DNA of 455 bases, taken from assembly GCF_003334255.1 (NCBI RefSeq), contig NZ_QOWU01000238.1; one strand, written 5' to 3'. The notes below the pieces were generated by a model. That model made no database searches and was not told where the DNA came from. It saw only the letters and a program-made list of their open reading frames with translations. The position numbers were made by a program, and so were the translations under genes. Positions 1-455 of this stretch are shown here, one piece after another. This stretch comes from Escherichia coli (GTDB taxonomy: Bacteria; Pseudomonadota; Gammaproteobacteria; Enterobacterales; Enterobacteriaceae). Each line of letters opens with the position of its first letter. Positions within the stretch are counted from its first letter, which is position 1.

Positions 1-455
1 TCAGCACATGGCGGGGCTTCGTCTATGTGGCGTTCATCATTGATGTGTTTGCCGGATACATCGTGGGGTGGCGGGTCTCATCGTCCATGGAAACGACATT
101 CGTGCTGGATGCACTGGAGCAGGCGTTATGGGCCCGTCGACCGTCCGGCACGGTCCATCACAGTGATAAAGGTTCTCAGTATGTATCGCTGGCCTACACA
201 CAGCGGCTTAAGGAAGCCGGATTACTGGCATCAACAGGAAGTACAGGCGACTCGTATGACAACGCGATGGCGGAGAGCATCAATGGTCTTTACAAAGCGG
301 AGGTAATACACCGTAAGAGCTGGAAAAACCGTGCAGAAGTGGAACTGGCCACACTCACGTGGGTGGACTGGTATAACAATCGACGATTGCTGGAAAGGCT
401 GGGCCATACTCCTCCGGCAGAAGCAGAAAAAGCTTATTATGCTTCCATCGGAAAC
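1..455 (+). CDS. IS3-family transposase OrfB, DDE (rve) integrase catalytic domain; internal fragment, partial at both 5' and 3' ends
   Basis: Frame 3 (first full codon at 3..5) is open across the whole window and translates to [151 protein letters not shown]. It carries the IS3-family/retroviral-integrase signatures: 'HSDKGSQY' (second catalytic Asp, codon 165..167), '[16 protein letters not shown]' (catalytic Glu at 273..275, conserved Lys seven residues later at 294..296), and the C-terminal 'W(V/I)DWYN..RRL...G..PP.E.E..YY' block. Recognised from memory of IS3, IS629 and IS6110 OrfB sequences, not from a search. Confidence 0.9.
1..455 (+). mobile_element. Internal segment of an IS3-family insertion sequence (probably IS51 subgroup, IS629/IS1203/IS3411-like); no element ends within the window
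   Basis: The window is fully occupied by the transposase catalytic domain. Neither the IS terminal inverted repeats nor the orfA/orfB frameshift region are present, so the element boundaries lie outside the window on both sides. The subgroup assignment is from recalled motif patterns only. Confidence 0.8.

Follow-up and report, generated by a model that had tools for sequence, protein, structure and literature searches.

The window analysed here, i.e., the whole 455-nt stretch of Escherichia coli DNA, lies entirely within the coding sequence of an insertion sequence transposase. Of its three forward frames only frame 3 (nt 3-455, + strand) is open, over all 151 of its 151 codons, and after mononucleotide shuffling of the window this frame stayed open in 12 of 20,000 shuffles. 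The open frame, its identity to a full-length copy inserted in the ynfC gene (L002) and the match to the NCBIfam model NF033516 all mark it as an internal fragment of the orfB/orfAB CDS of the element IS629, covering residues 141-291 of the 296 residues of OrfB. Of the transposase's DDE catalytic domain the window encodes the C-terminal two thirds, and it ends shortly before the stop codon, the right inverted repeat and the insertion junction found in other copies of the element.

The transposase fragment and its C-terminal block

The translation of the window matched NF033516 (‘IS3 family transposase’) with a score of 177.6 bits (E = 4e-52) over profile positions 228-369 of 369, compared to a curated cut-off of 160 bits, and the full OrfB scored 314.6 bits, which places the protein among the IS3 family transposases. 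The runner-up, an IS481 model, reached 47.5 bits with the window and 85.7 bits with the full OrfB, against its own cut-off of 224. In Pfam, OrfB matched HTH_21, rve (residues 127-223), rve_3 and rve_2, of which the last two end at residues 278 and 279, respectively (window residues 138-139). A sequence search of the Protein Data Bank with the full OrfB (L002 2083-2970) returned no chain at E-values up to 0.01, so that no close structure-solved relative of OrfB is detectable by sequence, and a scan of both strands of the window against Rfam gave no RNA family at E-values up to 1.

The GAT codon at nt 165-167 (+), inside the Pfam rve domain, encodes the second Asp of the DDE triad, D195 of OrfB in the motif HHSDKGSQY, which we take to be a catalytic residue from the established knowledge of IS3-family DD(35)E transposases. 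It is followed, just past the rve domain, at nt 273-296 (+) by the catalytic Glu, E231 (GAG, nt 273-275, in DNAMAES), and a conserved Lys, K238 (AAA, nt 294-296). The first Asp, D136 (in WVADFTY), is encoded five codons upstream of the window and is present in the copies identical to it. D136, D195, E231 and K238 are all invariant in an alignment with InsF, the corresponding protein of IS3. A DD(35)E spacing is typical of the IS3 family, and in OrfB 35 residues separate D195 from E231, with K238 located seven residues after the Glu. Comparisons between isoforms of the element gave synonymous to nonsynonymous differences of 27:8, 21:13 and 35:17 in the sense frame, i.e., an excess of synonymous changes.

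We also considered an antisense ORF of 58 amino acids at nt 231-407 (− strand), which in the full element extends over 82 codons from a GTG start (L002 2731-2979, −) and overlaps the C-terminal part of orfB as well as the C-terminal block discussed below. Since a stop codon interrupts it in two isoforms, in IS1203 (L005) as well as in the other copy from O157 (L006), and since its synonymous to nonsynonymous differences (0:4, 3:7 and 2:2) are mostly nonsynonymous, we regard it as a chance ORF and rejected it as a gene.

The last 20 residues of frame 3 (nt 396-455, +), which begin 4 nt before position 400, had been proposed in the earlier note to be the final conserved block of IS3-family OrfB proteins. 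This is borne out, as NF033516 reaches its last position (369 of 369) inside the segment, at window residue 142 (nt 426-428), and the C-terminus of IS3 InsF aligns to it. The remaining nt 429-455 form the start of a non-conserved C-terminal tail. Given the ends of NF033516 and of the Pfam rve_3 and rve_2 domains, the segment contains the final family-conserved block plus a short non-conserved tail. The string ‘HLGGVSPEAFE’ that the earlier note gave for IS3 pointed to the right block, as the InsF alignment confirms, but its letters were inexact: InsF has GGLSPEQFE.

Relationship to IS629 and its isoforms

IS629 is a member of the IS3 family that was first described in Shigella sonnei and is abundant in E. 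coli O157:H7 and other pathotypes. The 455-nt window corresponds, at 100% identity, to nt 796-1250 of a 1,310-bp IS629-type element; in L002 it lies at 2501-2955, inside a CDS annotated as ‘IS3 family transposase, programmed frameshift’. Numerous chromosomes and plasmids of E. coli, as well as some plasmids of Salmonella, match all 455 nt at 100% identity, and ‘IS3 family transposase’ or ‘IS3-like element IS629 family transposase’ is the name given to the CDSs over these matches. In the curated phage record LC567828.1 there is a copy that is annotated as ‘insertion sequence: IS3 family IS629’, with a length of 1,310 bp and a ‘target site duplication: TAA’. Relative to the window this copy shows 99.3% identity (three differences in 455 nt), and its ‘IS629 transposase OrfB’ and the element itself end 18 and 60 nt, respectively, after the position equivalent to the window end. 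The roughly ≥95% nucleotide identity that ISfinder uses by convention for isoforms is exceeded over the whole element, the L002 copy (100% match to the window) being 99.47% identical to the LC567828.1 copy over the full 1,310 bp; the identity to IS629 was thus measured against this curated copy rather than the original S. sonnei reference sequence. In addition, the exact OrfB protein occurs on at least 1,000 contigs, with proteins of CFT073 among them, and its 90% cluster bears IS629 names. Nothing speaks against the identification as IS629. The insertion sequence to which the window belongs has long been known and is extremely common.

The element represented by the window agrees with IS629 in its length, the layout of orfA/orfB, the end of OrfB, the inverted repeats and the duplication of 3 bp. 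It does not differ from IS629 in function and is one of several circulating sequence variants. Another isoform of IS629, IS1203/IS1203v from E. coli O111:H- and O157:H7, likewise measures 1,310 bp and has the same architecture, and its last 120 nt, right end included, are identical to those of the isoform in the window. Over the 1,310 bp there are 49 differences between the two (96.26% identity), one of which changes E to G in LLERLGH, near the C-terminal block; within the window there are 23 mismatches (94.9% identity). Measured isoform identities of 96.3% (IS1203), 96.0% and 94.7% (a pseudogene copy in strain Nissle 1917) agree with the three subtypes, 4-5% apart, that have been described for IS629 (PMC3271280).

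The mismatches to IS1203 are unevenly distributed, with 13 of the 23 clustered in a 73-nt patch at window nt 140-212 (element nt 935-1007). Most of the patch variants are common to the Nissle 1917 copy and only four of them are found in L006. Such a clustered patch suggests that the IS629 isoforms may have a mosaic or recombinant history. The Nissle 1917 copy (L007 460-1673) is itself a pseudogene, in which the R at codon 268 of OrfB, immediately upstream of the C-terminal block, has become an internal stop (YNNR*LL), and it also has a changed base in its right inverted repeat (GGGGAGGTTCA).

The family's type element, IS3 of E. coli K-12 (insE/insF), has in common with IS629 the two-ORF layout in phases 0/-1, the DD(35)E plus K core and the TG...CA ends. 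The proteins InsF and OrfB are 30% identical, and the C-terminal block ...GGLSPEQFE of IS3 aligns to ...GHTPPAEAE of IS629, whose OrfB is nine residues longer at the C-terminus. The gap between the stop codon and the end of the element is 30 nt in IS3A compared to 42 nt in IS629, and the elements measure 1,255 and 1,310 bp, respectively. In some sources the identical OrfA (that of L002) goes under the name ‘Insertion element IS6110 uncharacterized 12.0 kDa protein’. This name, transferred by homology, hints at a relatedness between IS629 and IS6110, two elements whose kinship the earlier note had drawn on.

The right end, target sites and transposition

The region downstream was read on seven full or partial copies from different contexts that are identical or nearly identical to the window. 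In all seven, the reading frame continues for five codons (DDLAA, or NDLAA in two isoforms) and stops at a TGA at +16 to +18 relative to the window end. In the isoform of the window, positions +1 to +18 read GATGATCTGGCAGCCTGA (DDLAA and stop) and are followed by 42 nt ending in ...CCCGGGGCGGTTCA. The right inverted repeat, 25 nt long, occupies +36 to +60, so that its terminus, ...GGCGGTTCA, lies exactly 60 nt beyond the end of the window. The copies in three unrelated contexts (L001, L002 and L003) are identical up to ...GGTTCA at +60 and diverge at the very next base. The 60 nt are identical in five of the seven copies and carry one or two base differences in the other two, which are divergent isoforms; in all seven the flanks diverge immediately after +60, so that host DNA begins at +61. 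The earlier note had anticipated, from the C-terminal block, that the window ends close to the transposase C-terminus, with the stop codon and the right terminal inverted repeat within roughly 100 bp downstream. The other copies agree with it on each point, and the approach of recognizing the last conserved transposase block to predict the end of an IS worked, the actual distance being 60 bp against the ~100 bp predicted.

The window is thus very probably an internal piece of an IS629 copy that continues as GATGATCTGGCAGCCTGA, then with 42 nt to ...CCAGGAAACCCGGGGCGGTTCA, and then with unrelated DNA. Because these 60 nt are absent from the window, the continuation is a population-based reading drawn from other copies, and for the source molecule it should be taken as the most likely one.

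The anatomy of the whole element is best seen in the copy inserted in ynfC, which is 1,310 bp long and runs from TGAACCGCCCCGGGAATCCTGGAGA to TCTCCAGGAAACCCGGGGCGGTTCA. Its terminal inverted repeats of 25 nt, TGAACCGCCCCGGG..CCTGGAGA, are complementary at 23 of 25 positions and have the TG...CA ends of the IS3 family; both the imperfect repeat matching the left end and the terminal dinucleotides had been foreseen in the earlier note. The orfA (108 codons, L002 1760-2086) and orfB (296 codons, 2083-2973) reading frames overlap in phases 0/-1, which is the two-ORF arrangement of the IS3 family. In full-length copies identical to the window, orfA/orfB are annotated with a ‘programmed frameshift’ and a pseudoknot feature, and it is from this annotation that frameshifting is known here.

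In ynfC the element has CCC to its left and to its right, and a search with the empty site as reconstructed (TTTACCCCTGAG) gave matches of 100% identity, which in 5,370 genomes cover at least 80% of the query; from the CCC flanks and the empty site together, the target duplication is 3 bp. Duplications of GCC and TAA are seen at the copy between yhdY and yhdZ and in LC567828.1, respectively. The element thus makes short direct target-site duplications like other IS3-family members, of a length in the 3-4 bp range that had been predicted and that has been reported for IS629 (PMC3271280). Two full-length copies, L006 (O157:H7 FRIK804) and L007 (Nissle 1917), lack a matching pair of 3-bp flanks. 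Their lack agrees with the finding of duplications at only 21 of 47 IS629 sites (PMC3271280) and points to later IS-mediated rearrangement or deletion beside these copies.

Going by family knowledge and the literature, the active transposase would be the OrfAB fusion produced by -1 frameshifting, and transposition would follow a copy-out-paste-in pathway. One end of the element would be cleaved and would attack the opposite end on the same strand, a circular copy whose ends abut would then be replicated out, and the circle would integrate into a new target. In strains having an IEE protein, excision of the element might also occur. The phases 0/-1 of orfA/orfB, the DDE core, circle intermediates, copy-out-paste-in transposition and IEE have been described for IS629/IS1203v (bioRxiv 10.1101/2023.06.07.543989), and the IEE protein promotes excision in EHEC (bioRxiv 10.1101/2023.06.07.543989; PMC9943667). 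We also inspected the abutted ends for a junction promoter such as that of IS911, and simple inspection gave no convincing -35/-10 spacing. The window includes neither orfA, the frameshift site and the first Asp nor either end of the element, and it therefore allows no judgement on whether its own copy is intact or active.

Abundance, alternative readings and genomic context

Among complete E. coli genomes the window occurs at 25,595 places in 6,709 records, belonging to 4,139 of the 5,426 genomes, with a median of three and a maximum of at least 49 places per genome having any. It also matches 3,160 plasmids (from Escherichia, Shigella, Salmonella, Klebsiella and others) and 174 phage records, mostly of Stx-converting phages. 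IS629 thus has a wide distribution, which takes in E. coli and Shigella as well as their plasmids and Stx prophages.

Could the source copy nevertheless differ from the other copies beyond the window end? It might be damaged, i.e., truncated, interrupted by another IS or deleted past nt 455, in which case the canonical stop, right repeat and duplication would be missing. Damaged copies do exist: in L001 an identical copy has lost its 5′ part to the insertion of ISCro1, an IS66-family element, the Nissle 1917 copy has its internal stop, and for some records the best place is a partial match only. However, a 120-nt probe spanning both the window end and the IS end (60 + 60 nt) was found at 24,851 places, about as many as the window itself, and a place covered at least 80% of it in 6,181 of the 6,229 matching records, so the right end is nearly always intact. 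The frame in the window is moreover intact and identical to the commonest protein variant. Damage to the source copy therefore appears improbable. Still less credit can be given to a frame that continues well past the window, as in a fusion protein or a different family architecture. The stop codon does lie outside the window, and no other support was found for a continuing frame, but seven of the seven copies stop after five more codons, the NF033516 profile is already complete (369 of 369) within the window, and in the alignment the end of IS3 InsF is reached sooner still. None of the copies examined has a frame that extends over hundreds of further codons, the outcome that the earlier note had named as speaking against its reading. 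The idea of a DDE integrase-like gene domesticated or recruited by the host, or of a phage integrase, outside any mobile element can be dismissed with hardly any reservation, in spite of the Pfam ‘integrase core’ (rve) domain in the protein and the label ‘int: integrase’ over a 100% match in the phage 21 record AF017626.1, as the same DNA occurs in thousands of unrelated contexts, repeatedly within single genomes, with inverted repeats, target duplications and a demonstrated empty site.

The interpretation as an internal IS629 fragment thus stands, and what remains is the question of its position. As the junction lies 60 nt beyond its end and more than 25,000 places match it, the window does not reveal which host gene is interrupted or adjacent. 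It is a repeat fragment without a genome placement, and any assembly in which it forms a 455-nt record probably broke at a multi-copy IS. If the break had left an assembly-graph bubble, one would look for isoform-variable DNA at the window edges (IS nt 796 and 1250), and the comparison gave no clear pattern: the first isoform variant in the window is at nt 13, and the last one is at nt 394 or, in the comparison with one isoform, at nt 455. The practical value of the window is one of negative knowledge, and it matters little in itself.

Few insertion sequences of E. coli and Shigella are as well catalogued as IS629, which is used for strain typing of O157:H7. There is a slim chance that the source copy adjoins a biologically important junction, at which a virulence, surface-antigen or defence gene is switched on or off, or that it resides in a host outside the usual Enterobacteriaceae. 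IS629 has been documented elsewhere to inactivate or activate such genes.

Two individual matches may be mentioned in addition. In AF017626.1 (Escherichia phage 21, a 2,662-bp record) the 100% match to the window lies at 791-1245 on the − strand, under the ‘int: integrase’ annotation, and either an int gene has been interrupted by IS629 or a transposase has been labelled as an integrase. In L001 (2218-3712, strain 300709) the right end of IS629 abuts a truncated gene for a ‘nucleotide-binding domain-containing protein’, which is followed by a SLATT-domain gene, and the region is bracketed by two copies of ISCro1. These two genes could be a defence-type gene pair that was disrupted by the IS.
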